DNA from: an uncultured virus (IMG/VR IMGVR_UViG_3300031993_000020)
Lineage: Duplodnaviria; Heunggongvirae; Uroviricota; Caudoviricetes
Length of the DNA stretch: 21,872 nt
IMG/VR virus record: IMGVR_UViG_3300031993_000020
Strand: one strand, 5' to 3'
The notes under the pieces are model-generated. The model saw only the letters and a list, made by a program, of their open reading frames with translations. It was not told where the DNA came from and searched no databases. Each line of letters opens with the position of its first letter. Position 1 is the first letter of the stretch. Below, in pieces: positions 1-20,251 of this stretch. The position numbers were made by a program, and so were the translations under genes.

Positions 1-18
1 GGTATAAGGAGATTTATT

Positions 19-516
19 ATGAAAAAGGTATTCACAACTGAATGGAAACTGGTACAAGCGAGTTCTGGAAAGAAACGGAACGAACAGCTCTTTGACCTGG
101 ATTTTCATCCTGTCCACACAGATGAAGCTGATTTTGGTTTGTCTGTCGGAGGACTCAAGAGTGACGTAATTCCGAAAGTTGGCAAAAACTACACGCTGAC
201 TCTTTATGAGGCAGAAGGTTATGATGGTGTCTGGTTCACTGTAACATCAGTTGCTATCGCTGATGATGGCGAAAAAACTCGCTTGGATGTAACACTTCTG
301 CAACAGAATGATGACTACTATACAGAAGTTGTCTTTAATTGCTTTACGGATAAGTTTTACACTAACCTGCACGACCGTTTCTATCTGATTTTGGAAGAGG
401 TTGACGATAACGCGCGGCTGATTGATCAGCTGCCGAATATTCTTAAAGAAGATCCTCGGACAGAGATTGAAGTAACCACTGACATCCGGAAAAGTTTTAT
501 TCGACCGCTTCCTTAG
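19..516 (+). CDS. hypothetical phage protein (165 aa)
   Basis: ORF with a strong RBS (AAGGAG at 6-11) 7 nt before the ATG; no motif recognised. Confidence 0.8.
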   Translation: MKKVFTTEWKLVQASSGKKRNEQLFDLDFHPVHTDEADFGLSVGGLKSDVIPKVGKNYTLTLYEAEGYDGVWFTVTSVAIADDGEKTRLDVTLLQQNDDYYTEVVFNCFTDKFYTNLHDRFYLILEEVDDNARLIDQLPNILKEDPRTEIEVTTDIRKSFIRPLP

Positions 517-534
517 TGCTTGAATATACAAGAA

Positions 535-650
535 TTTTGCAGAACGTTTTGAAGTACAGCTAACTACTTTACTCTTTGCTTTTGATGTGCTCATATTTTT
601 TCTCCCTTCTGCTTCCGCCGTCGTGAGATGCCGGAGAACGTTCTGTAGAA
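535..650 (+). ncRNA. putative structured small RNA, copy 1 of a shared scaffold
   Basis: 535-549 pairs with 636-650 (15 bp, G-U wobbles only on the + strand). Internal hairpin TCCG-C-CGTC-[GTGA]-GATG-C-CGGA (614-635) has a GNRA loop. Followed by a terminator. Homologous scaffold at 3503-3657. Confidence 0.6.
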
Positions 651-654
651 GTGT

Positions 655-701
655 GCTGACCTCTCTTGTGTACTTCGGAGGGGTCAGTTTTCTTTTTTTT
701 T
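655..701 (+). terminator. rho-independent terminator
   Basis: CTGACCTCTC (656-665) pairs with GAGGGGTCAG (678-687), followed by TTTTCTTTTTTTTT. Confidence 0.8.
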
Positions 702-718
702 CTCTTCTCGAGGCTTTT

Positions 719-1846
719 ATGAAGATCAATAAAAATACTATTAGAGATGGTTATATATGTAGTTATTGGGACATAAGTCAAGCAGAGCCCCGATCTATCT
801 GTTATCTTTCTGAAGATCCTTTATTCAAGGACCTTTATCAGATAGGAGGCGATGCATACAAAGAGCTTGCGATTCGTCGGTGGCTAGCCTCACATAATCT
901 TGACCCGTCATTTAATTCTCCTGATCGCGCAAAAGTCGATATGAAATGGGTCAAGGAACAGAGAACATTATATAAGACAATCATTCTTTCTGGTATTTAC
1001 GGCAGAAGTATTAAGGCACTATCTGAATCTGCCGGTGTTTCTTATGAAGTCGGTAAAGAGATTTGGGAAGGGTTCATGGGGCCGATGAAAAAGGTCACAG
1101 AATTCCGCGATAATAACATTGCCTACGCCGAAAAGAATGGTTACATTAATACAATTCTAGGGGAAAGAATCCCCTGTGATATGGATAATATCTATACGAC
1201 AGCTAACAATTGGGCTGTTCAGGGATTTACCGCAGTTATCTTAGCTACATTCTTTTATAATTGTATTGAAAAAGCATTAAGTATGGGAATCGACGTTACT
1301 TCGTACATGATTATTCACGATTCTCAGACTATTTCATTTCCCATCAAGGATTTATTCTTGATGGATTTGATCTGTAGAAAATATTTCCGCGAAGCCTGTA
1401 AACAGTATTTTAAGCCGGATTACAAATTCGATTGGGATCTGATGTTTGATTTAATGAAACATATTCCCTATCAATTTGATTTAAATTCCAGCACCGCTAC
1501 GTTTACTCTCTGGTCAGAAAAAGTAGATTATTTGTTGGATCATCTGGCAGTGAATTATAAATTCAAAGTGACCCAGAGAGATGAGTTTACAGAGCCAGAC
1601 ACGGAAGGTGCTAAGCTCTTAGTTAGCACAGGAAAGAACAAGTACCACTTAGTTATGGAAAACGAACGGTTCAGACAATTAAAACAGACAAAACTAAAAA
1701 TCCAGTTAACGGAAAAGTTAAAAAACATTGATTGGTGGGATGTTCCATTAGAGCCCACTTTTCTTGAACATATCAAGAAAATCAAATACTTAGACTTTAG
1801 TAAATTCTCTGGCGAAACTAATGTAGGTATTAGTAACGCAGTTTAA
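719..1846 (+). CDS. polA: DNA polymerase family A, C-terminal palm/fingers part only (split PolA)
   Basis: Motif A WDISQAEPR, motif B RTLYKTIILSGIYG, NGYINTILG...ANNWAVQG, motif C IIHDS. ATG at 719 is preceded by GAGG. The longer GTG start at 587 runs through the RNA and terminator and was rejected. Confidence 0.9.
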   Translation: MKINKNTIRDGYICSYWDISQAEPRSICYLSEDPLFKDLYQIGGDAYKELAIRRWLASHNLDPSFNSPDRAKVDMKWVKEQRTLYKTIILSGIYGRSIKALSESAGVSYEVGKEIWEGFMGPMKKVTEFRDNNIAYAEKNGYINTILGERIPCDMDNIYTTANNWAVQGFTAVILATFFYNCIEKALSMGIDVTSYMIIHDSQTISFPIKDLFLMDLICRKYFREACKQYFKPDYKFDWDLMFDLMKHIPYQFDLNSSTATFTLWSEKVDYLLDHLAVNYKFKVTQRDEFTEPDTEGAKLLVSTGKNKYHLVMENERFRQLKQTKLKIQLTEKLKNIDWWDVPLEPTFLEHIKKIKYLDFSKFSGETNVGISNAV

Positions 1847-1898
1847 TAAAAGTTGAATGCGTGTACTATTAGAACCAGAGTAGTTTTGGAGTTTCAAG

Positions 1899-2612
1899 AT
1901 GCCCGGTTTGCGTTTTTCATATCTATATCAGGAAGACATCGCGCAGATAATAGATGCGAAAATACCGATATGTCTTCTTAATAATAAGAACATTCTGATT
2001 TCTGGTGACGCTTCTCAACTTTTGTGCAGCTATCTATTAAGTAATCTAGTTACGCTTAAGAAATTCTACGATCTTAATATTGGTATTTATATTTGGCCTA
2101 ATACAACTGAATATTTTGGATGTGACTGTATTACCGGTATAAATAAATTGTCCGATGTTAAGAATACGGTTAGTTATATAATTGATACAGACAAGAGGCA
2201 CACAAGAGACCTTATTAATTATGCAACACGGCATAACGCCAGATTAGCTTTTATAACGGGATTGGATTCTTCCGAAGATGTTCCCAGTGGTGTTTCTCAT
2301 GTTACAGTGAGACTTGGACATTTACTGGGGATACTGCCTACTACCAAAAATTTAGTACAGACGACAATTTTAGGAATAGTAAGCGATCAAAAGATTTTAC
2401 TTCCTGATATAAGAGTCAAAACCGTATTACCAGAAGCTGCAGCTATTGGTATTCTGAAGGCGGTTTTATCTGATGAAGTAAAGGTTGAACTGATAAGCGG
2501 CACCGTAAATCCAAATAACATTTTACTGAAAACTCCGATGAATGGAGTTGAAGACTATGCATTGGAAGTGGTTAAAGTTTTAAGCCGATATAAAGAAGAA
2601 GAGAGCGATTAA
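1899..2612 (+). CDS. degenerate NAD-dependent epimerase/dehydratase-like (SDR fold) protein
   Basis: N-terminus EDIAQII...LNNKNILISGDASQLLCSYL resembles extended-SDR sugar epimerases, but the GxxGxxG motif is eroded and no YxxxK is seen at the expected position. GGAG RBS. Confidence 0.5.
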   Translation: MPGLRFSYLYQEDIAQIIDAKIPICLLNNKNILISGDASQLLCSYLLSNLVTLKKFYDLNIGIYIWPNTTEYFGCDCITGINKLSDVKNTVSYIIDTDKRHTRDLINYATRHNARLAFITGLDSSEDVPSGVSHVTVRLGHLLGILPTTKNLVQTTILGIVSDQKILLPDIRVKTVLPEAAAIGILKAVLSDEVKVELISGTVNPNNILLKTPMNGVEDYALEVVKVLSRYKEEESD

Positions 2613-2631
2613 GCTCTTAAGGAAGGGTTTT

Positions 2632-3492
2632 ATGGCAACTGAAGAACTAAAGAACTGGGAAGTAAGCAGTATCCTCGGATATTTCAAATTGGCATTAATC
2701 GCCGCGAAATCGAAGGGTGATATTGCATTTGCGCTCGTCTGTAATAAACCTGTCTATATTATGGATAGCAGGCCTTTAGAAGAAGCCTGTTCTAATCTGA
2801 TTTCTGGTGTATCAGATGACATTAAAGCGGCTGGCATCAATAGTATGACCGCTGATGAATTAAAAGGGTCGCTTATTATTAAACAGCATTTCAACAAGCT
2901 GGTGGACGACCTTTTTAAATATGCAGTAGATCAGAGTACTGTCCGTGTAGGCGTCAAGAATGCTCCGGCGGAAGAAGATGTTGAATACGATACTATCGAG
3001 CCGGGAGATCCCGTTATCGCTCTGTTTGATGTCTTACAGAATCTTGGATTAAAGCCGCAAGAGTCTCCAAAGACTCATCCAGATGAACCTCCGGTGATTG
3101 AACATTCATTTGCAGAAGAGTCAGAAGAGGTTGAGCCGGTAACCGACATCGAAGCAAGTATTAACGACGTTGATGACGATGATGTTCTAGACGGTAGCGA
3201 CGAAGAAGTAGAGGAACCCGTTGATATTGTCGAACCAGTAGAAGAACCGGAAGAAGCTGTAGAGACGGTAGAACCAATAGAACAAAGGAAACCTTTTTAT
3301 TCGGAGAGTGGTATGACTGATTTAGATACTCTTATTGAGCAGAGTGAGCTTCTCTGCCGGAATATTCGTAAGATTGCAGCGTTAAAGAAAATAGACGCTT
3401 ATGATAATATTGACGACAATCTTCTGGCTAAACTTTCAGAAGATTTAGATCGTATAAAAGAATCGATTGCAGAAATCCTTTTGGATATGTGA
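2632..3492 (+). CDS. acidic hypothetical protein with a low-complexity D/E/P/V central region
   Basis: 286 aa ORF, RBS AAGGAAGG, tract DVDDDDVLDGSDEEVEEPVDIVEPVEEPEE, helical-looking C-terminus. Confidence 0.8.
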   Translation: MATEELKNWEVSSILGYFKLALIAAKSKGDIAFALVCNKPVYIMDSRPLEEACSNLISGVSDDIKAAGINSMTADELKGSLIIKQHFNKLVDDLFKYAVDQSTVRVGVKNAPAEEDVEYDTIEPGDPVIALFDVLQNLGLKPQESPKTHPDEPPVIEHSFAEESEEVEPVTDIEASINDVDDDDVLDGSDEEVEEPVDIVEPVEEPEEAVETVEPIEQRKPFYSESGMTDLDTLIEQSELLCRNIRKIAALKKIDAYDNIDDNLLAKLSEDLDRIKESIAEILLDM

Positions 3493-3502
3493 TCGACAAA
3501 AG

Positions 3503-3657
3503 TTTTGCAACAGTGATAAGAAACGTAATCGTTCATAAAGTGCTCATGATGATTGTTCTGTTTTTGCATTAGTCCTTTCTGTATCGTGTACTCGGAAACT
3601 CCTATTTGTTATTTGTTTGGTCGGCAGTTGCGAAACTCCCGAGAAGCTGTTGCAGAA
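3503..3657 (+). ncRNA. putative structured small RNA, copy 2 of the shared scaffold
   Basis: TTTTGCAACAGT (3503-3514) pairs with GCTGTTGCAGAA (3646-3657). Hairpin TCGG-C-AGTT-[GCGA]-AACT-C-CCGA (3621-3642) is followed by a GAA linker, the same spacing as copy 1. Confidence 0.6.
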
Positions 3658-3701
3658 GACTAGACCCCTCGAAGTGCTTGACACATCTTGCTGGTTTAGC
3701 C

Positions 3702-3751
3702 TGTGATAAATTGTCCTTTATGCGCTTCTTCAATTTATCATATTTTTTCTT
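3702..3751 (+). terminator. AU-rich hairpin plus T-tract, possible terminator of RNA copy 2
   Basis: TGATAAATTG (3704-3713) and CAATTTATCA (3731-3740) form a perfect inverted repeat followed by TATTTTTTCTT. Confidence 0.4.
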
Positions 3752-3796
3752 AAAAAAATATTTGACAACAAAATTTTGGGCAGATATAGATAATCT

Positions 3797-3960
3797 TGCT
3801 CAAGTTGAGCTGTTTGTGACGGAAGTGATTTCCGTCGGGCAGATACGTCATTTGATGATAGTGCATTATCCTTCTCATGCACGACGACTGCCCTCCCTAC
3901 CGAGGAAAATGCACAACCTCGGTAGGGATTCCCCTTTTCTGCTTTTTGTTGTCACAAAAA
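3797..3960 (+). promoter_or_regulatory. highly structured RNA element (sRNA or switch-like 5' leader of the SLT gene)
   Basis: Consecutive stems: GCTCA/TGAGC; GACGGAA/TTCCGTC (3818-3836); GGGCAG..CGTC..GTGCAT/ATGCAC..GACG..CTGCCC (3837-3893); 12-bp TCCCTACCGAGG/CCTCGGTAGGGA (3894-3928) followed by a pyrimidine tract. TTGACA at 3762. Confidence 0.5.
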
Positions 3961-3970
3961 TGAGGTTTTT

Positions 3971-4604
3971 ATGTATAAAAGTTCGAAAGTAAAGGATTAT
4001 TGTTTATTACTGACCATGATATTTATCCCGCTGTTAATAGGTGTTGGATCAACTTATCTAGTAATGAAAAGTTTTTACGATAATGCACCGGCGGGAGATT
4101 TTAATGATAGAATAGCTGAGATTTCAAAAGAGAACACTTACGAGTTTCTTCCGAAAGAAATGTCAGAGTATATTTTGAAATTATGTGGAGAGCTTGGCGT
4201 AGACGGAGCATATTAATCGAAACAACAATCATTCAGTTGATTTAGGTTTGTTTCAATTAAATGATCGGTATCTGTATAGTACATTTCAAAAGAGGTATTG
4301 GAAGTTTAAAGATATTGAACTGGATCCTTTCAATTGGAAACACAATACTTACATTGCTATTCATCATATTCGTTATTTAACTAAGACACATAAAATTTGG
4401 AATGAAGTCGTTATGGCATATAATTGTGGGTCGACTTCAGTTATGAAAAACAAGGTTCCTGATTCGACTAAAGCGTATTTAGCCAGAGCCCAGAAGAATT
4501 ACGCTCTCTTGAAAAACAGAGTAAATGTTGACTTGGAAGTCCCAGAGATAATTCCAGAGAATCAGGACCGGGAAGAAGTTACCAGACTGGCGGATATTCG
4601 CTAG
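3971..4604 (+). pseudogene. membrane-anchored SLT-domain lytic transglycosylase, broken by an apparent frameshifting deletion near 4202
   Basis: Frame 1 has a TM helix then ...ILKLCGELGVD and stops at 4216. Another frame from 4203 reads TEHINRNNNHSVDLGLFQLN...DPFN...MAYNCG...TKAY (SLT motifs II/III). The helix carrying the catalytic Glu is absent. Confidence 0.75.
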
Positions 4605-4624: not shown

Positions 4625-4936
4625 ATGCGCAAATCGGTTTATTCTCTCTACGCTGAGCAATTAAACAGCATAGACCAGGGACAAAGATGTAAAGCTCTCT
4701 GGTTGGCAGTTTTAGATCAGGCATTAGTGGATATTAGACATCCTACGGGAACGCCCACACAAAAAGGAATGCTTACGAGGCAGCTTTTTGTGTGGTCGAA
4801 AACGAAGGATTTCGATACAATCTGCATGTATGCCGGAGTTGATAAATCTGCCATGATATGTGCGCTTGAGAACGCTTACAAAGAGCGTAGAAGTGAAGGG
4901 AAGAAACACAAGAGGACGCATCGTAACTTCCTCTGA
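4625..4936 (+). CDS. conserved phage hypothetical protein
   Basis: Pattern LWLAVLDQALVD...W...DFDTICMYAGVD resembles a widespread family of small uncharacterised phage proteins (recognised by eye). Confidence 0.7.
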   Translation: MRKSVYSLYAEQLNSIDQGQRCKALWLAVLDQALVDIRHPTGTPTQKGMLTRQLFVWSKTKDFDTICMYAGVDKSAMICALENAYKERRSEGKKHKRTHRNFL

Positions 4937-4963
4937 GCAAGAGCTCAGAGGATTTAGTTCTTT
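4929..4963 (+). terminator. probable terminator hairpin overlapping the stop codon
   Basis: Perfect 10-bp stem TCCTCTGAGC-AAGA-GCTCAGAGGA followed by TTTAGTTCTTT. Confidence 0.55.
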
Positions 4964-7107: not shown

Positions 7108-7123
7108 CGTCTGCTAATGGTAT

Positions 7124-7220
7124 AAGCTCAGGTGCGCTTTTCGCTATTCTGCGAGTAATTCTTACAGCAAAATTCAAAACTTCTTCAATTGTACCGCAAG
7201 GTATTCTTCAGCCTGAGTTT
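7124..7220 (+). ncRNA. putative small RNA with paired termini and a GNRA hairpin
   Basis: AAGCTCAGG (7124-7132) pairs with CCTGAGTTT (7212-7220). GTACC-[GCAA]-GGTAT (7191-7204) lies just before the 3' arm, and a terminator follows directly. Confidence 0.4.
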
Positions 7221-7224
7221 AGAG

Positions 7225-7266
7225 GAGCGGGGATCGACAAAATCGGTCTCCGCTCTTTATTTTTCT
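7225..7266 (+). terminator. rho-independent terminator
   Basis: 13-bp stem GAGCGGGGATCGA / TCGGTCTCCGCTC followed by TTTATTTTTCT. Confidence 0.8.
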
Positions 7267-7283
7267 GATTTAGGAGATTTTTC

Positions 7284-7547
7284 ATGCAAAGTACGATTGC
7301 TACAAGGCTAAAGGGCCTTTTGTTAGAACGTGGAATCACTCAAAAGAAGTTGGCGGATATGATCCATTGTACCGAGGGTGCAGTTTGTCGCTATTTGCAG
7401 GGTGAGAGAGAACCGAGGATAGGAATTATTACGAAGGTCTGCGACATCTTTGAAGTATCTGCTGATTATTTATTACGCGGCACACCTGACATCAAGAAAC
7501 CGAGAATAAAAGTAAAACGAGGAAAAATTAAATGCACGTTACACTAA
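7284..7547 (+). CDS. XRE/Cro-C1 family helix-turn-helix transcriptional regulator
   Basis: RLKGLLLERGITQKKLADMIHCTEGAVCRYLQGEREP...FEVSADYLLRG is a classical HTH_3 pattern; AGGAG RBS. Confidence 0.92.
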   Translation: MQSTIATRLKGLLLERGITQKKLADMIHCTEGAVCRYLQGEREPRIGIITKVCDIFEVSADYLLRGTPDIKKPRIKVKRGKIKCTLH

Positions 7548-8686: not shown

Positions 8687-11614
8687 ATGCGAGTTTTTAA
8701 AAGAAATGGACAAGAACAGGATTTCGATCTTGGAAAGATAACAGCTGCACTGACCAAAGCGTATAATGCTACTGGAATAGGCACAAAAGATTCTATCGAA
8801 GCAGTGCTTGGTACAGTGCAGCAATCTTTGAGTGGAGTCTCTACGATTACAGTAGAAGACATTCAGGATATCGTAGAAAAGGCATTGGTAGCCAATAATC
8901 AATACGATATTGCAAAGGCTTATATTATTTATCGACATGATAAAAAGTTAAATAAGAAATTTACCGATATGGAAGAGCAGATTCTTTCTGTCGTTGATGG
9001 TACAAATGACACACAGAGAAGTGAAAATGCGAATAAGCACTTAGATGTCAATTGTACTGTTAGAGATTACATTGCCGGAGTAGCCTGCAAAAGTCTTGCA
9101 GAAAAGATTTTGCCTAAGAGGGTTATCGAGGCGCACAAAAAGAAATGGATTCATTTTCACGACATGGACTACAGTCCTGTCATGCATCTGACGAATTGTG
9201 ATTTACTTAATGTCGAGGATATGTTGCAGAATGGCTTTCAGATGGGTGATGTTCACATTGATAAGCCGAGGAAATTCTCAACCGCCTGCAATCTGGCAGC
9301 ACAGATTAATATGCAGGTATCCTCTTCTCAATATGGTGGACAGACTATTTCCTGGGCTCATTTGTTGCCTTTTGTAGAAGGCACTAGAGAGTCCGCTGAC
9401 GGGTTCATTAAAGAGACCGTGGACAATCTTCCTCTCTTTATTAGAATCCTCATAAAACCGATTGTAGGGCTTTTTAGAAAGAGATTAATTGAAACAATTA
9501 CCAGACTGGATATTTATACAGGCATTAAGACGTATCAGTATCAGACCCTTTCTGGATATACTGCTAACGGTCAGACTCCGTTCGTTACGAATGTCTTGAA
9601 TCTAAGAGAAGCTGAGACTGAAGAAGAGTTGAAAGACTTAGCTATTATCTTTGAGGAAATATTCAAAAGGAGACTAAAAGGAGTCAAAGATAAGTCCAAC
9701 AAATTTGTTGGACCGTTATTCCCGAAGCTGTTGTATTTTACCTGCGATGGTCTAAATATTGATAAGAAAGATCCATATTACTATCTGACGAAGTTGGCTG
9801 CGAAGTGCATTGCGCTGAGAATGCAGCCAGATATTATGTCAGAGAAGAAAACGAGAGAAGTTAAAAGCGGTCAGGTTATCGCCTGTATGGGTTCAGTCGC
9901 TCCTAATGAAATTGTTACTTACAGAATTGGTAACAGTGTATACGTTGAAGCTATCGAAAGTATGTGGCAGAGACTGGGAGAGATTTATAGAGAAGCGAAA
10001 CAGGCTGAAGGTACGATTGACTGCTATATGAAATCTGATGGTATAAAGATTTACGACAACAAACAGAAAGATTTCGTTGACTGTCTTTGTATAACGAAGA
10101 ACTGGGCAGATCAGTTCTTGCAGGTGAAGATTGGTGACAGAATATTAGTTACGACTCTGGATCATAAATTTGAAACGGAGAATCGTGGTGAGGTGTTCGG
10201 TTACAATCTTAAAAGCGGAGATCAGATCATCGTATCAAAAGAGATGCCTAGTGTAGATAATATTGTAAGAGAGACTGAAATACAGACAGTCACTGAAGTT
10301 AAGACTCTTACTAAATCTGGCTGGTCGTATGATGTTACTACTTCCAGTGAGCATTTTGAGGTGTCTGGTATTTACTCGCACAACTGTCGTTCTTTCTTAG
10401 CTCCGGTCTGGGAAGATGTCCGTTATCCAATATCGGCGAAATTCCATTGGCAGAAAATTGAAGATGGAAATATTCAGTACAATGGAGCGCCGAATAAGAA
10501 TTTTGATTATTCCAGAGGCTTCGGTAAATACAGTGAATTACCAAAAGATCCTGTTGGTAAGGTTGTTATCAATTTTGCTGGTAATTCAGGCTGGGTAAAA
10601 GAGATTGATAGTGAACGAGATGAACTGATTATTACTAGACCGAAGGTATATGGTCGTCTAAACTGCGGTGTCGTTACTATCAATCTTCCTCATGCGGCTT
10701 TAACTGCAAAGAAAAGAGCCGAAGAAGAGCATACAGATATAAAAGAGACCTTTTATAAAGTTCTCGACGAAAGACTCGATATCTGTCACGAAGCATTACT
10801 TGAGCGCTGGAAATCAGTTCAAAAGATTAAGGCGAAGAACAGTCCGATTCTCTGGATGCACGGCGGCATTACAAGACTGCCTCCAGAAGCCAGTGTCGCG
10901 GATTATATTAAGTCCAGACAGAACATATCACAGACATCTATTTCTCTCGGATATATTGGCTTATGTGAAACTTGCTGGGCAATTATCGGGGAAAGTAACA
11001 CCACTGAAGCAGGAAGACAGTTTAGTAAAGATGTACTGAATTATATGAATAAAGTGTTAGCTGATTGGAAGAGTCAGGACGTCTTAGGATATGCTATTTA
11101 TGGTACTCCCGAGGAATCTGTAACCCTCTCAGCGGCACAAGCATTACAACGAGATTTTGGTTATGTTGAACATATAACAGATAAAGATTTTGTTGTCAAC
11201 TCTTATCATGTAGATCCCAGAGAACACATTGATGCCTTTACAAAACTAACAATTGAAGGCGAATATCTTGCTTTATCCTCCGGGGGAGCTGTCTCTTATG
11301 TAGAAACAGCAGATCTGACAGACAATCCAGAAGCGATTGAAACTCTTATAAAACACATGCACAACAGCATTATGTATGCAGAGGTAAATCGAAAAATTGG
11401 AGTCTGTTATAATTGTGGATATCAGGGAGATATTCCACTTACAAAAAGCACTGACGGTGATTTTATCTTTACCTGTCCAGAGTGCGGAAACAATGATTCA
11501 ACCAAAATGCACGTAGAAGCCAGAATTTGTGGCTATATTGGCGAAATAAGTAATAACAACGTCAACAAGGGACGGTTGGATGATATTTACAACAGAGTAT
11601 TACATCTGACTTAA
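8687..11614 (+). CDS. nrdD: anaerobic (class III) ribonucleoside-triphosphate reductase with N-terminal ATP cone and an intein
   Basis: ATP cone VFKRNG..FD..KI; IHFHDMDY, TNC, QYGGQT, GQTPF, FPKL, MG|CRSFL, GRLNCGVVTINLP, YGTPEES, NSYHV, CxxC...CPEC, glycyl-radical RICGY. Confidence 0.97.
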   Translation: MRVFKRNGQEQDFDLGKITAALTKAYNATGIGTKDSIEAVLGTVQQSLSGVSTITVEDIQDIVEKALVANNQYDIAKAYIIYRHDKKLNKKFTDMEEQILSVVDGTNDTQRSENANKHLDVNCTVRDYIAGVACKSLAEKILPKRVIEAHKKKWIHFHDMDYSPVMHLTNCDLLNVEDMLQNGFQMGDVHIDKPRKFSTACNLAAQINMQVSSSQYGGQTISWAHLLPFVEGTRESADGFIKETVDNLPLFIRILIKPIVGLFRKRLIETITRLDIYTGIKTYQYQTLSGYTANGQTPFVTNVLNLREAETEEELKDLAIIFEEIFKRRLKGVKDKSNKFVGPLFPKLLYFTCDGLNIDKKDPYYYLTKLAAKCIALRMQPDIMSEKKTREVKSGQVIACMGSVAPNEIVTYRIGNSVYVEAIESMWQRLGEIYREAKQAEGTIDCYMKSDGIKIYDNKQKDFVDCLCITKNWADQFLQVKIGDRILVTTLDHKFETENRGEVFGYNLKSGDQIIVSKEMPSVDNIVRETEIQTVTEVKTLTKSGWSYDVTTSSEHFEVSGIYSHNCRSFLAPVWEDVRYPISAKFHWQKIEDGNIQYNGAPNKNFDYSRGFGKYSELPKDPVGKVVINFAGNSGWVKEIDSERDELIITRPKVYGRLNCGVVTINLPHAALTAKKRAEEEHTDIKETFYKVLDERLDICHEALLERWKSVQKIKAKNSPILWMHGGITRLPPEASVADYIKSRQNISQTSISLGYIGLCETCWAIIGESNTTEAGRQFSKDVLNYMNKVLADWKSQDVLGYAIYGTPEESVTLSAAQALQRDFGYVEHITDKDFVVNSYHVDPREHIDAFTKLTIEGEYLALSSGGAVSYVETADLTDNPEAIETLIKHMHNSIMYAEVNRKIGVCYNCGYQGDIPLTKSTDGDFIFTCPECGNNDSTKMHVEARICGYIGEISNNNVNKGRLDDIYNRVLHLT
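9893..10384 (+). mobile_element. mini-intein (164 aa, Ser1, no homing endonuclease) in NrdD
   Basis: Interrupts the conserved MG-CRSFL motif. Starts SVAPNE, block B TTLDH, block F SYDVT, ends SHN followed by Cys+1. Confidence 0.93.
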
Positions 11615-12389: not shown

Positions 12390-12932
12390 ATGATCTTTAC
12401 CTACGGAAAAACAATTGGAAACAAAAAATTAATGCTCGAATATGACAGCGAGAGCAATGAACCAGGAGATATTGGAGAAGATTTTCAGAAGGTAAAAGAA
12501 TATGTTACCCAAAATCTTTTCAAACAGAAGTATACATCAGACTTTCTGCGTATTCATAAGAGCGATCAGGCACAAAGCAGCTTAATCGTTGCTACTACTT
12601 TGATGGCTCTTAGTAGGGTATTGAGAGAAAGAGGAGTATTCAAATTCTGTTTAAGCTACGGTTCTTGCTGTGTAGCCTACGGATTTAGCAGAAAAGATTT
12701 AAGTATTCCTGAGATGTCAGTGCATTATCACTTAAGTAAATTAGGAACTTTTACCATTTTTACTTATACTGATAAGGACACTGTAGCTGTTGTCGATTCT
12801 GGAAGAAATAATCCTATCTCCTGCTGTTTAGATGCTATCGCCGCAGCAGAGAGTATGACCTATAATTCAGAGTTCGATAATACAATTTCTCGGTTCAAAC
12901 CGAAATGTTTGAAAGCAACTTCGGTCGCCTAG
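12390..12932 (+). CDS. hypothetical protein (180 aa)
   Basis: ORF with GGAG RBS, abutting the previous gene. Confidence 0.75.
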   Translation: MIFTYGKTIGNKKLMLEYDSESNEPGDIGEDFQKVKEYVTQNLFKQKYTSDFLRIHKSDQAQSSLIVATTLMALSRVLRERGVFKFCLSYGSCCVAYGFSRKDLSIPEMSVHYHLSKLGTFTIFTYTDKDTVAVVDSGRNNPISCCLDAIAAAESMTYNSEFDNTISRFKPKCLKATSVA

Positions 12933-12975
12933 TTGCTGGAAACGTGTATATATAGAGATATAAGGAGTAACAAAA

Positions 12976-13251
12976 ATGATCAAACCGATGGGCGAACAAG
13001 TAGTAATCAAAGTAGACAATATCGAAAAAGTTTCTCCAGGTGGAATTATCCTTGCGGAACTTAATCCAGAACCAGCAGATTCCGGTATTGTTGTCAGAAC
13101 GAGTATTAACCGTAAATCCCAGTTAAAAGAGGGAGACCACGTAAAGTTCAATCCGTATGCAGGTCAGGAGTTTAGAACTCCAGACTGCGAAGAAGGGTTT
13201 AAATATCGTTTAGTGCCGGAGCATAACATCTATGCTCTGATTGATGACTGA
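12976..13251 (+). CDS. groES: co-chaperonin GroES (Cpn10)
   Basis: IKPMGEQVVIK...EKVSPGGIIL...GIVV...LKEGDHVKFNPYAGQE...YRLVPEHNIYALI; AAGGAG RBS. Confidence 0.9.
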   Translation: MIKPMGEQVVIKVDNIEKVSPGGIILAELNPEPADSGIVVRTSINRKSQLKEGDHVKFNPYAGQEFRTPDCEEGFKYRLVPEHNIYALIDD

Positions 13252-13269
13252 AACGATAATATCGAGTTT

Positions 13270-13313
13270 GAGGGCCTACTGGGGATAGTCCTCGGTAGGC
13301 CCTTATTTTTTTT
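13270..13313 (+). terminator. rho-independent terminator
   Basis: 16-bp stem GAGGGCCTACTGGGGA-TAG-TCCTCGGTAGGCCCTT followed by ATTTTTTTT. Confidence 0.88.
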
Positions 13314-13333
13314 GTGAACAAACGAGGAATACA

Positions 13334-14059
13334 ATGGCGAAGAATTGGCAACTAATCGAACATTACTTTAGTGATTTTCTGGATCAGATAACGAAGACTT
13401 CCAGAGCGAAAGTTATCGAAGCATACAAGATAGTAGACGATAACTTCTTTATAATGCCAGCAGCATCAGGAGACCATCACAGCGAATTGCAGGCTTGTGA
13501 GCATGGACTGATGTACCACATTTATGAAGGGCTAATTGCTCTGGAACAATTTATCAGAGCGAGGTCTGACGTTATCAATTATTGGAAAAACAAACCAGAG
13601 TATGAGGGAGAGGATCCTACATCAGATCTGATAACCGCATACTTAATGCATGATATTTGCAAATTCAAATCTACGCCTTCCGGTTCTAATTATGAACACG
13701 ATGAGGACGCCTATGAATTTTGCAAGGCTTTAGGATTTAATCCCGTTGTCTGTGAAATCGTGAGATACACTCACGGGCAGTGGAGCACTGTTACAAAGAA
13801 AACGGGCAAGACCATTAAAGACAGCAAATATGCGAGTCTTTGTTGGCTATCTCATTTTGCCGATATGGCAGCCTCCTCTATGAGACCTTTGAGATTTATT
13901 GATAAGGTCAAAACCTTTGATAAGGTATACTTCTCGAACAACAAGGAGAAGAAGAGAGAGGGCGACAAAACAGTAGATGTTGCCTGGTGGAAAAGTGCCA
14001 TGAAGGCAAAACCGGAGCATACGATGTCTCTAGGCGAGAATGAGCCTGAGAGCTGGTAA
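13334..14059 (+). CDS. HD-domain phosphohydrolase (YhaM-like HD domain)
   Basis: PAAS..HH...GLMYH..E, LMHDICK, HG, HFAD metal-ligand pattern. Confidence 0.85.
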   Translation: MAKNWQLIEHYFSDFLDQITKTSRAKVIEAYKIVDDNFFIMPAASGDHHSELQACEHGLMYHIYEGLIALEQFIRARSDVINYWKNKPEYEGEDPTSDLITAYLMHDICKFKSTPSGSNYEHDEDAYEFCKALGFNPVVCEIVRYTHGQWSTVTKKTGKTIKDSKYASLCWLSHFADMAASSMRPLRFIDKVKTFDKVYFSNNKEKKREGDKTVDVAWWKSAMKAKPEHTMSLGENEPESW

Positions 14060-19165: not shown

Positions 19166-20251
19166 GTGGCAAACATTCATATTACTTACACGGCAGACGG
19201 TCAGACAGCTATTGATAATCAGAGTGACATTTCCTTAACTGGTATGTCTGTCTCCTCTGATGGCTCTAGCTGGGTTGCCTGTTCTGACCTTTCTTGGAGT
19301 GGCACACTTTATTCCGGTAAAGTGGTTGCACCCAGTGATGACTTTGAATTAAATCACGTTAAAGTTTTCTTCGGTGATACTACCACCGCTCTCTGTACTG
19401 GTGATACAAGTGATCCGATAGCTACGCTTGCTAAAGATGAGAGTATAGTTATCTCATTTAATCCTGCAGTAGCTACTAGGGATTTAGTTACCAACACTCC
19501 TTCTGGAGGTGGTGGTGGTGGGGAAATCGACCCTGCAGTTCTTAACGCAAAGCAGGATAAAGTACTGAGTCTGACGGGCAGTAATCAGATTAAGTTTAGT
19601 GACGGTTTCGGAACTGCTACTACCGTTGAAGATGCGCTGGTTCGGCTAAAAAATAAGATCAATGATACATCAAATGCATCTACAAGTCGACGCTTAACAA
19701 AGAATGCAATAACACAGCAACAGTCCGGTACTTATTACTATAAATTAGCTGAGGTGGTTACTCCAGATGTTGCTTATCAGACAGATCAGCCTAATGCGAT
19801 TACTTTTAGTATTAATGGCTTAATGCAAATGTATGTATGGAAAGATATTGTTCCAGATGACTTTAGCGCATATTATCCTTTACAGTTTGCAGAAATAAAT
19901 CTTCGTTTGCATATTATTAATCCTGGGGTTGTGTCTCTTGTGGGAACTTATTTTTACAATGAATTTCCTCAGGGGTCAGATATTTTAGTGACACAAGATT
20001 CTAATTCGTATTATCAAGTATATTTAAAATTCAATCGGGATACTACTGCTAAATCTGGTACAGTATTTAATATCTACTGTACCTCAGCGGATGATCTGAT
20101 TCTGGACGGTAACATTATTTCAGCTCTTCCAGAAGGCACAACTGTAGTCGCCTCGCTAACTCAAAATGCGATCGATCTGACCGCTCTCAATAGCGGTGAT
20201 GGCGGTGGAGGTCGCAGTATTCCTATTATCACTGTGGAGGTGGATCCATGA
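19166..20251 (+). CDS. putative tail fibre protein
   Basis: GTG start with AGGAGG. Collar-like N-domain, PSGGGGGG linker, LNAKQD and TVEDAL motifs typical of fibres, beta-rich C-domain. Confidence 0.6.
   Translation: MANIHITYTADGQTAIDNQSDISLTGMSVSSDGSSWVACSDLSWSGTLYSGKVVAPSDDFELNHVKVFFGDTTTALCTGDTSDPIATLAKDESIVISFNPAVATRDLVTNTPSGGGGGGEIDPAVLNAKQDKVLSLTGSNQIKFSDGFGTATTVEDALVRLKNKINDTSNASTSRRLTKNAITQQQSGTYYYKLAEVVTPDVAYQTDQPNAITFSINGLMQMYVWKDIVPDDFSAYYPLQFAEINLRLHIINPGVVSLVGTYFYNEFPQGSDILVTQDSNSYYQVYLKFNRDTTAKSGTVFNIYCTSADDLILDGNIISALPEGTTVVASLTQNAIDLTALNSGDGGGGRSIPIITVEVDP

Follow-up and report, generated by a model that had tools for sequence, protein, structure and literature searches.

The question raised by this locus is what a small folded RNA is doing at two separate places between the genes of a large, uncultured gut phage. 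The window, that is, the whole stretch of DNA that was analysed, is 21,872 nt long and comes from an uncultured virus of the Caudoviricetes. It carries two copies of a folded RNA element on its + strand, at 535-650 and 3503-3657. The first-pass annotation, made from the letters of the window, had read these sites as phage small RNAs with a fixed scaffold, and all the coordinates and strings that it gave for both copies are present in the sequence. The same structured RNA module, a previously undescribed element with a total size of 117-155 nt, is thus present twice, as two paralogues.

Each copy is closed by a 12-bp helix, P1, which encloses a long loop, a hairpin and a short linker. In copy 1, the 5' arm TTTTGCAGAACG (535-546, + strand) is followed by a 67-nt loop (547-613), the hairpin (614-635), a GAA linker (636-638) and the 3' arm CGTTCTGTAGAA (639-650). 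Copy 2 runs in the same order on the same strand: 5' arm TTTTGCAACAGT (3503-3514), 106-nt loop (3515-3620), hairpin (3621-3642), GAA linker (3643-3645) and 3' arm GCTGTTGCAGAA (3646-3657). Both hairpins are made of 4 bp, a C-C mismatch and another 4 bp, and are capped by GTGA in copy 1 and GCGA in copy 2. The 12-nt arms form 12 of 12 pairs when G-T is allowed. The outer 7 nt of the 5' arm are the same in the two copies; within the helix the outer part of 7 bp is constant (UUUUGCA / UGYAGAA) and the inner 5 bp are free to vary together, with four of the five pairs differing between copies. The loop of copy 2 also holds a spare 5' arm, TTTTGCATTAGT (3562-3573), which pairs with the 3' arm at 11 of 12 positions.

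On the + strand, RNAfold predicts both the closing helix and the hairpin of each copy; most pair probabilities are 0.9-1.0, and the whole intergenic stretches have z-scores of -2.77 and -4.52. Five G-U pairs are compatible only with the + strand, so the fold is assigned to the + (mRNA) strand. The 3' geometry that had been described as identical (a 22-nt hairpin, C-C mismatch, GYGA loop and 12-nt arm) is present in both copies. The GAA linker of that description is clean only in copy 2; in copy 1 it is able to pair with UUU at 547-549.

The loops are pyrimidine-rich (49% T in copy 1 and 42% in copy 2, versus 29% in the window) and share two fixed words. One is GTGCTCAT, already noted as common to both loops, whose matches at 587-594 and 3540-3547 are the sole two in the window on either strand. 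The other is the 10-nt word TCCYTTCTGY, which has exactly two occurrences on the two strands of the window, at 603 and 3573, both within the loops: TCCCTTCTGC in copy 1 (603-612) and TCCTTTCTGT in copy 2 (3573-3582). As RNA, the fixed words of the 67-106-nt loop read GUGCUCAU and UCCYUUCUGY. Loops with two fixed words and a common pyrimidine bias do not fit the interchangeable cargo or guide sequence that had been proposed for them.

A descriptor of the fold asks for a hairpin of 4 bp + 1 + 4 bp capped by a GNRA loop, then a linker of 3 nt, and for 12/12 arms inside a 260-nt span; it finds two sites on the + strand of the window and none on the - strand. Over 200 dinucleotide shuffles of the window it matched a mean of 0.005 times, with one match in a single shuffle and two matches in none. 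Copy 1 and copy 2 were not linked by blastn-short. MAFFT shifts the innermost 5 nt of the two 5' arms out of register, which would mis-specify the helix in a covariance model of two sequences, and the descriptor scan took the place of such a model. Smith-Waterman alignment of the 3' 77 nt of both copies gave a score of 32, which was reached by 0 of 300 shuffles. A possible third, degenerate copy at 3673-3752 is weak, with a local score of 29 that 12 of 300 shuffles equalled, and was rejected.

The covariation comes from one comparison, between two paralogues, in which the 20 aligned base pairs comprise 11 identical pairs, two with one-sided changes and seven with two-sided changes, three of these in the internal hairpin, and none that is broken. 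This bears out the compensatory base changes reported earlier. The copies differ in 16 of the 40 paired columns versus 1 of the 10 unpaired ones. When the changed letters were re-dealt, all pairs were kept in 70 of 100,000 trials, and with random changes in 0 of 100,000. Base pairing is clearly under selection. Fixed unpaired nucleotides beside freely covarying stems are what one would expect of a scaffold that a protein recognises or that tertiary contacts keep in shape. Together with the G-U pairs, they uphold the annotation's assignment of the element to the + strand and to a fixed scaffold at the RNA level.

The annotation had recognised no known class of RNA, and the searches agree. Rfam 15 gave no match in the whole window at gathering thresholds; at E up to 10 in the region 400-4100 the sole overlap was SNORD11, with 20.2 bits against a threshold of 55, and the related locus L001 gave nothing in Rfam. 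ARAGORN found no tRNA or tmRNA gene in the window. Hammerhead, K-turn or C/D box, tRNA-like and attC structures were dropped after the sequence was read against the respective consensus, and a retron msr-msd was dropped for want of a reverse transcriptase. For attC, AAC and GTT do sit in the arms, but their registers differ between the copies; RYYYAAC / GTTRRRY, the core words of integron attC, are in register in neither copy, and the window holds no integrase.

Further copies are scarce. On both strands of a related 203-kb phage contig, the descriptor found only unrelated 11/12 matches without the fixed words, and four JGI relative loci gave no copy. Elsewhere in the G001 assembly there are 13 pattern matches, and the hairpin is formed by 0 of the 13. 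IMG/VR gave no match to strict and semi-strict IUPAC patterns and at least 120 to a loose one, and among the matches listed none makes more than 6 of the 8 hairpin pairs. The phage collection gave no DNA match to window positions 1-4200. One orthologue was found in X5, another cattle-gut sample, where the block 531-696 is kept at about 96% with seven substitutions and two one-base deletions; its ends are the helix foot and the terminator's U run, and both flanks are below 80% identity. What looks like one more 3' arm upstream of the block in X5 reads as the end of an ORF.

Relatives with the same genes and terminators (L001 and L026-L029) lack the element, and relative to L001 both copies are insertions: the polymerase halves overlap there, and an ORF fills the place of copy 2. 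What had been called a family thus comes down to two copies and the one orthologue in X5, with none in the relatives or IMG/VR. The annotation had said that a lack of further copies or of covariation in relatives would tell against it. Neither turned up among the relatives reached, which stand at only 62-72% protein identity, so that their intergenic DNA is not comparable.

The position of the copies says more about what they may be. The upstream ORFs end at 516 and 3492 and the closing helices begin at 535 and 3503. Since both copies start 10-18 nt past a stop codon within co-directional operons, they are most simply parts of mRNAs. Ahead of either copy there is no conserved promoter, only weak sigma-70-like matches by eye, and this, with the place of the copies just downstream of stop codons inside operons, goes against the discrete small RNA of the annotation. 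The shared tails that it noted are present, and are better read as intrinsic terminator sequence, complete at copy 1 and halved at copy 2: CTGACCTCTC is the 5' half of the complete terminator, and CTAGACCCCTC is the same half after copy 2. The terminator 3' of copy 1 (655-701, + strand) lies 5 nt downstream of the element and has a 12-bp stem, 655-666/677-688, followed by TTTTCTTTTTTTTT, with the U run reaching about 701. After copy 2, CTAGACCCCTCGAAG (3660-3674, + strand) is similar to the 5' half of copy 1's terminator, its 3' partner is absent from the window, and the next full terminator is about 240 nt away.

The C-terminal half of polA, which encodes motifs A to C of the enzyme, has its ATG at 719, 18 nt past the terminator of copy 1, and would be a gene without a transcript unless transcription reads through. 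The same crowding recurs along the window. Strong + strand terminators at 655-701, 3895-3949, 7222-7258 and 13269-13305 each have a start codon no more than 28 nt downstream (719, 3971, 7284 and 13334), and a fifth, at 4929-4952, is followed by a gap of 127 nt. Promoter room is therefore absent after four of the five strong + strand terminators counted, and some read-through mechanism is needed. Copy 1 and copy 2 are both upstream of the terminators at 3895, 4929, 7222 and 13269. An analogous layout, from another sequence family, is found on the + strand at 7123-7258 (z -4.87): an 11-bp long-range stem (7123-7133/7211-7221), a 3'-proximal hairpin with a GCAA loop (7191-7204), a 16-bp terminator (7222-7258) and then a ribosome-binding site, with the start codon at 7284.

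A riboswitch or attenuator was tried and rejected. In the minimum-energy fold the closing helix is present alongside the terminator, and the terminator still forms in RNAfold after the 5' arm is removed, so there is no built-in antiterminator switch. A riboswitch-like switch between the loop word UCCYUUCUGY and the 3' arm was likewise dropped; the pairing exists, and is estimated to be expected from pyrimidine and purine composition.

The best explanation, which we put forward tentatively and as no better than possible, is that the element works in cis: as part of the nascent mRNA it would enable transcription to continue through terminators, as nut and put do. The module would be transcribed within the + strand operons of a phage of roughly 200 kb, and its invariant unpaired nucleotides and GNRA hairpin would be recognised by a factor from the phage or the host, or by RNA polymerase itself. 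Transcription would thereby continue beyond the terminator that lies 5 nt after copy 1, and beyond later ones, so that the C-half of polA and later genes would be made, on the same principle as in lambda nut and HK022 put. The want of promoter room after most of the strong terminators, the place of the copies upstream of them, the region 7123-7258, which repeats the layout, and X5, which keeps 531-696 between diverged flanks, may speak for this. Against it, the predicted folds suggest no antiterminator switch, and boxA-like words are no more frequent in the loops than elsewhere. No such element immediately precedes the terminator at 13269, so that plain leakiness may account for read-through. 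The element is missing from relatives with the same genes, which have terminators too, and copy 2 has lost half of its own terminator and stands about 240 nt from the next full one.

Antitermination has three close rivals. The next in probability, itself unlikely, is a selfish repeat of the bcr1 type: a small, structured, non-coding DNA element resembling a MITE, with 12-bp imperfect terminal inverted repeats. It would spread or be shuffled between intergenic sites, be passively transcribed and keep its fold, and do nothing that the phage needs. Such a repeat would fit the insertion of both copies relative to L001, copy 1 and its terminator between diverged flanks in X5, the rearranged look of copy 2 (spare 5' arm, half terminator), the presence of the element in this lineage only among the relatives and IMG/VR patterns, and the terminal inverted repeats themselves, with 12/12 pairs when G-T counts. 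The bcr1 element of the Bacillus cereus group (PMC3184786) offers a precedent as a patchy, transcribed intergenic repeat of about 155 bp whose fold shows compensatory changes, but it has many copies and 5-bp flanking direct repeats. Here, in a phage, flanking direct repeats are absent at both copies (flanks read by eye), there are just two copies in 21.9 kb and none in the 203-kb relative, and no transposase is nearby. The ends of transposable copies should match, yet four of the inner 5 bp do not, and the internal hairpin has its two-sided changes with the unpaired bases fixed. Rather unlikely, and after the repeat in order, is a 3'-UTR-derived or independent sRNA of about 170 nt, from helix foot to terminator, whose pyrimidine-rich loop would base-pair in trans with ribosome-binding sites rich in purines, much like the guide idea of the first-pass annotation. 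The block conserved in X5 has exactly those ends, copy 1 is ended by a classical terminator, and the loop words CUCC and UCCYUUCU (in loops of 42-49% T) are complementary to the GGAG-type ribosome-binding sites preceding most genes. This sRNA would have no conserved promoter, copy 2 would be without a terminator of its own, and the loop pairing with the 3' arm is, by estimate, expected from composition alone.

A signal for mRNA processing or stability is more doubtful still. The 12-bp helix stacked on the 9-bp hairpin would give about two duplex turns with a GAA bubble, at which RNase III or some other nuclease might cleave or exonucleases might stall, and the polycistronic message would be cut after the upstream gene. 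The intercistronic sites just past stop codons, the fixed geometry with free stem sequence and the several dispersed copies within one operon system would suit this. In the early region of T7, the sites for RNase III are irregular hairpins of about 50-60 nt that are not known to have a large loop or fixed words in it. They resemble the element in being dispersed and intercistronic in a phage operon and conserved in geometry beyond sequence. Unlike known RNase III sites, the stack here is broken by the 67-106-nt loop; the conserved loop words would be left unexplained, and because a terminator follows anyway, a processed 3' end is not needed. Very improbable is a DNA-level signal, a single-stranded DNA fold or protein-bound inverted repeat near replication genes, such as a priming or recombination site. 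The elements do adjoin the split polymerase genes, and folded single-stranded DNA also tolerates G-T wobbles, but the attC core words are out of register, no integrase or recombinase is found near the copies in the window, and RNA is what a GNRA loop, a bias to G-U pairs and a terminator next to the element point to.

Antitermination, the reading we prefer, can be compared with known systems. In lambda, whose nut sites (boxA and boxB) act with the N protein, nutR lies between a gene end and the terminator tR1, ahead of the replication genes. As in lambda nut, a linear pyrimidine-rich part is followed here by a short hairpin with a GNRA-type loop, and the GNRA hairpin and close terminator of a nut-type site are both seen at copy 1, as a resemblance only. 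Unlike lambda nut, the element is without the boxA consensus, and boxB has no internal mismatch or closing helix. Terminators precede the early genes of lambdoid phages (PMC9378689), and HK022 has two put RNAs with a common structure, which are cis-acting nascent RNAs ahead of terminators. The element is alike in its two copies with a common fold. The put RNAs are about 70 nt long, with two adjacent stem-loops and a triplex, and lie just past early promoters, whereas the element combines a single hairpin with a long loop inside a 12-bp closing helix, and comes after coding genes; its fold is thus not one of about 70 nt with two adjacent stem-loops. conAn2, from the conAn antitermination system of pLS20 (PMC8191782), is an intergenic RNA between inverted repeats that works directly upstream of a terminator and follows a small-protein gene, of 172 codons there versus 165 here; it differs in spanning 260-600 bp and in its dispensable 20-bp repeats. 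The small protein there, ConAn1, is Pfam PF17362. ORF 19-516 has no Pfam match and is not ConAn1, and copy 2 has no such neighbour gene.

It is improbable, more so than antitermination as such or any of its close rivals, that the element stands for a new class of phage RNA antiterminator, joining put, EAR and conAn2, or alternatively for a protein-bound scaffold with trans guides. As an antiterminator, the compact clamp would present the pyrimidine-rich loop to a phage factor or the elongation complex, and the hairpin could fold back so that its GNRA loop docks on the conserved outer half of the closing helix. In a jumbo phage, a whole replication operon of 20 kb, studded with terminators, would be switched to read-through. 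In the alternative form, the clamp would be a protein-bound scaffold showing variable loops as trans-acting guides.

To our knowledge very few RNA-based antitermination or operon-control signals have been described, and almost none from large uncultured gut phages. Candidate phage RNA motifs have reportedly been catalogued in thousands in one survey. The evidence base here is thin (two paralogues and one orthologue). The architecture is small and sharply defined, with joints that are fixed and stems that are free, and a terminator lies 5 nt downstream. If it is only a structured repeat, the element still marks sites of gene-cassette entry in this phage lineage, and one such cassette is an ORFan wedged in beside a split DNA polymerase, next to its C-terminal half.

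The ORF that precedes copy 1, ORF 19-516, matched no Pfam family at E 0.01 and had no homologue except itself. Its single-sequence AlphaFold model, with a mean pLDDT of 40, is of too low a quality for use, and the Atlas structural neighbour is an Rpb8-like barrel with a TM of 0.58, which is a lead only.

The element is real, and every string and coordinate that the first-pass annotation gave for its two copies was found on reading the sequence. Both copies lie on the + strand. Copy 1 consists of a 5' arm (TTTTGCAGAACG, 535-546), a 67-nt loop between arm and hairpin, the hairpin TCCG-C-CGTC-GTGA-GATG-C-CGGA (614-635), GAA, and a 3' arm (CGTTCTGTAGAA, 639-650). Copy 2 has the same parts: a 5' arm (TTTTGCAACAGT, 3503-3514), a 106-nt loop, the hairpin TCGG-C-AGTT-GCGA-AACT-C-CCGA (3621-3642), GAA, and a 3' arm (GCTGTTGCAGAA, 3646-3657). 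It also carries an extra 5' arm, TTTTGCATTAGT (3562-3573), which pairs with the 3' arm at 11 of 12 positions, so that copy 2 resembles one and a half units. Two words occur only inside the loops: TCCYTTCTGY, found exactly twice in the window with both strands counted (603 and 3573), and GTGCTCAT, found in the window at 587 and 3540. The loops are 49% (copy 1) and 42% (copy 2) T, against 29% for the window. The GAA of copy 1 is able to pair with UUU at 547-549.

The two copies were compared over 20 aligned pairs in one pairwise comparison: 11 pairs are identical, 2 changed on one side (G-U to G-C), 7 changed on both sides, and 0 are broken. Sixteen of the 40 paired columns differ versus 1 of the 10 unpaired ones. 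All pairs were kept in 70 of 100,000 trials in which the changed letters were re-dealt among the changed columns, and in 0 of 100,000 trials with 16 random changes. On the + strand five of the pairs are G-U; read from the opposite strand they would be A-C. The compensatory changes and sense-strand fold noticed earlier hold up on these counts; the unbroken pairs, the randomisations and the + strand G-U pairs argue for selection on the fold, in the sense orientation of every neighbouring gene. Fixed in both copies are unpaired positions (the C-C mismatch, the loop G..A and the GAA), together with the closing helix's outer 7 bp. What had been described as a fixed scaffold is, on this evidence, a single-strand fold under selection on the mRNA strand, whose joints are sequence-specific. 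GAA links the hairpin (9 bp and a loop) to the 12-bp helix, and the hairpin could fold back so as to bring its GNRA loop up to the helix's outer half, where the sequence is conserved. Such docking would account for an outer 7 bp that stays fixed while the inner 5 covary.

RNAfold recovered the closing helix and hairpin on the + strand in both copies. The whole intergenic stretch of copy 1 has a z of -2.77 (2 of 200 shuffles fold equally well) and only -1.25 on the - strand; that of copy 2 has a z of -4.52 (0 of 100 shuffles). Pair probabilities of the closing helix are 0.87-1.0 for 9 of 12 pairs in copy 1 and 0.72-1.0 in copy 2, and those of the hairpin 0.74-0.97. A descriptor (4 bp + 1 + 4 bp hairpin, GNRA loop, 3-nt linker, 12-nt arms paired 12/12, at most 260 nt) matched the window twice on the + strand and 0 times on the - strand. 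On 200 dinucleotide-preserving shuffles it matched 0.005 times on average, with 1 shuffle giving a single match and 0 giving two; relaxing it to 11/12 added one unrelated match at 20195. blastn-short found no link between the copies; a local alignment of their 3' 77 nt scored 32, equalled by 0 of 300 shuffles.

The strings seen running on 3' of both copies are there, and turn out to be terminator sequence. CTGACCTCTC behind copy 1 is the 5' half of an intrinsic terminator, with a 12-bp stem (655-666/677-688) followed by TTTTCTTTTTTTTT; CTAGACCCCTC behind copy 2 is the same half, with no 3' partner anywhere in the window. The predicted folds contain both the helix and the copy 1 terminator, and removing the 5' arm leaves the terminator intact, which makes a self-contained, riboswitch-type switch unlikely. 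A small-molecule pocket is disfavoured by the variable, poorly structured loops with just two fixed words. Another word, AGTGCTTGA (= GTGCTTGA), has only two sites in the window, 19 nt 5' of copy 1 (516-523) and 16 nt 3' of copy 2 (3674-3681); the latter is kept at the matching place (13139) in the related phage contig L001.

All called genes in the window are on the + strand, and the copies start 10-18 nt behind stop codons (516 for copy 1, 3492 for copy 2). Copy 1 is followed by 5 nt, the terminator, 18 nt and an ATG at 719, and the 18-nt gap has no room for a promoter. The strong + strand terminators at 3895-3949, 7222-7258 and 13269-13305 each have a start codon at most 28 nt downstream; the one at 4929-4952, with a 127-nt gap behind it, is the sole exception among five. 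The lack of promoter room at four of the five argues that the genes behind them depend on read-through. Downstream genes encode thymidine kinase, thymidylate kinase, NrdD, NrdG, GroES and an HD protein (Pfam, PHROG). Pfam places ORF 719-1846 in the family A DNA polymerases (5.2e-16), and it makes up the C-terminal half of such an enzyme. The window belongs to a 198,555-bp contig.

A protein search with the polymerase half found 11 relatives at 40-79% identity. Relatives' DNA comprised L001 (203 kb, 72% identity) and four JGI loci (41-62%). None of it was in IMG/VR, and 50,697 phage records gave no DNA match and nothing close (best polymerase identity 27.6%). The element is absent from the whole L001 contig, the rest of its assembly and the four JGI loci. 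In L001 the polymerase halves overlap (ATGA at 8830-8839), so that neither ORF 19-516 nor copy 1 can be accommodated; at copy 2's place there is an extra ORF (12692-13123), behind which the DNA is weakly collinear with window 3674-3888. Two IMG/VR pattern searches for the element gave 0 matches, and a loose pattern gave at least 120, none of which, among the matches listed, forms the hairpin. As first supposed, this is not a recognised RNA: it is not in Rfam. As far as searched, the element is confined to this phage lineage.

Parts of window 1-4200 occur in ten public runs; all come from gut samples, of cattle or otherwise, and none is listed as RNA. Both copies are spanned, with 0 differences, by contigs from X2, whose sample and study differ from those of the possible source. 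An 842-nt contig of the gut sample X5 aligns with the window over 531-696 alone, where it shows 7 substitutions and two deletions of one base each (583, 585). Neither flank of this match continues like the window: the one upstream closes with a different ORF, and the one downstream is the start of a gene that has diverged. Farther downstream in X5 the flank before 947 is only about 70% alike by our own count, whereas 1094-2081 has 16 differences in 988; copy 2 lies within a 606-nt X5 piece with 12 substitutions. Because the match stops at 531-696 between two diverged flanks, the copy 1 unit, from helix foot to U run, is evidently kept as a block.

Tentatively, the element may act in cis as an antitermination or read-through signal like nut or put, a reading favoured because read-through is needed, the copies stand upstream of a series of terminators, and the unit is conserved with its terminator. 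HK022 has two put RNAs with a common fold, and terminators precede its early genes (PMC9378689); the element's architecture differs, which sets it outside put. conAn2 is an intergenic RNA bounded by inverted repeats, after a 172-codon gene, that works just upstream of a terminator (PMC8191782). The element's architecture differs here too and ORF 19-516 is not PF17362, so it is not a conAn2 member.

A structured MITE-like repeat, for which bcr1 is the model (PMC3184786), is doubtful, and direct repeats flank neither copy. Slightly more doubtful is a 3'-UTR-derived sRNA with a pyrimidine seed. The separate transcript of a discrete small RNA, as first proposed, was not borne out: there is no conserved promoter ahead of the copies, only weak sigma-70-like matches by eye. 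A processing or stability signal is a shade less probable again, and a DNA-level signal very improbable. The element's architecture is new within known kinds of element, either phage RNA signals that act in cis or structured repeats between genes.

ORF 19-516 is an ORFan of 165 aa, with 0 Pfam and 0 PHROG matches and no homologue besides itself among 5.8 billion clusters. Its ESM Atlas model (pLDDT 0.74) comes closest to beta-barrels of the Rpb8-like and OB/TOBE types (TM at most 0.58), which hints at a nucleic-acid-binding fold. The polymerase is split in this phage clade into N-half and C-half genes, with the break just before motif A, as read from window 719-1846 and L001 7208-8839 (the window phage's N-half lies outside the window). 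The window's C-half has its own ribosome-binding site and is preceded by the ORFan and copy 1. In L001 (region 8830-10010) the C-half starts at 8830, overlapping the N-half stop, and is interrupted for about 1.1 kb after ...SQAEP, resuming at RSICY. Group I introns are preceded by U and end in G; this insert's 5' neighbour is U and its last base G. It has no Rfam match, and its 260-aa ORF (9032-9814) resembles, by eye, a homing endonuclease of the GIY-YIG type that carries a zinc finger. The window's NrdD (8687-11614) has 975 aa versus 812 in L001, residues ~403-548 lacking a counterpart there, and no intein family was found in it at E 0.01 (Pfam).

A promoter-like TTGACA-17-TATAGA at 3773 is followed by about 140 strongly folded nt ending in a terminator (3773-3949); this stretch could be a small RNA of its own or a leader. 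The L001 counterpart (13246-13510) lies directly upstream of nrdD; across the two phages the site reads TTGACA-17-TATAGA/TATAGT, and the block GATACGTCA...TGCACGACGAC is conserved. Neither stretch matches Rfam. Most genes have a GGAG-type ribosome-binding site ahead of them, and there are U-run terminators. The GGAG-type sites and the promoter-like site suggest that the host uses classical signals, however the relative's bin is labelled; GGAG-type sites and U-run terminators fit poorly with a Bacteroidota host. The L001 contig was binned with a Paludibacteraceae genome.

The intergenic stretch 7108-7283 (z -4.87) repeats the layout of copy 1 with different sequence. On the + strand, an 11-bp long-range stem (7123-7133/7211-7221) encloses a GCAA-loop hairpin (7191-7204) and abuts a 16-bp terminator (7222-7258), 3' of which come a ribosome-binding site and, at 7284, the start codon of a gene for an HTH regulator.
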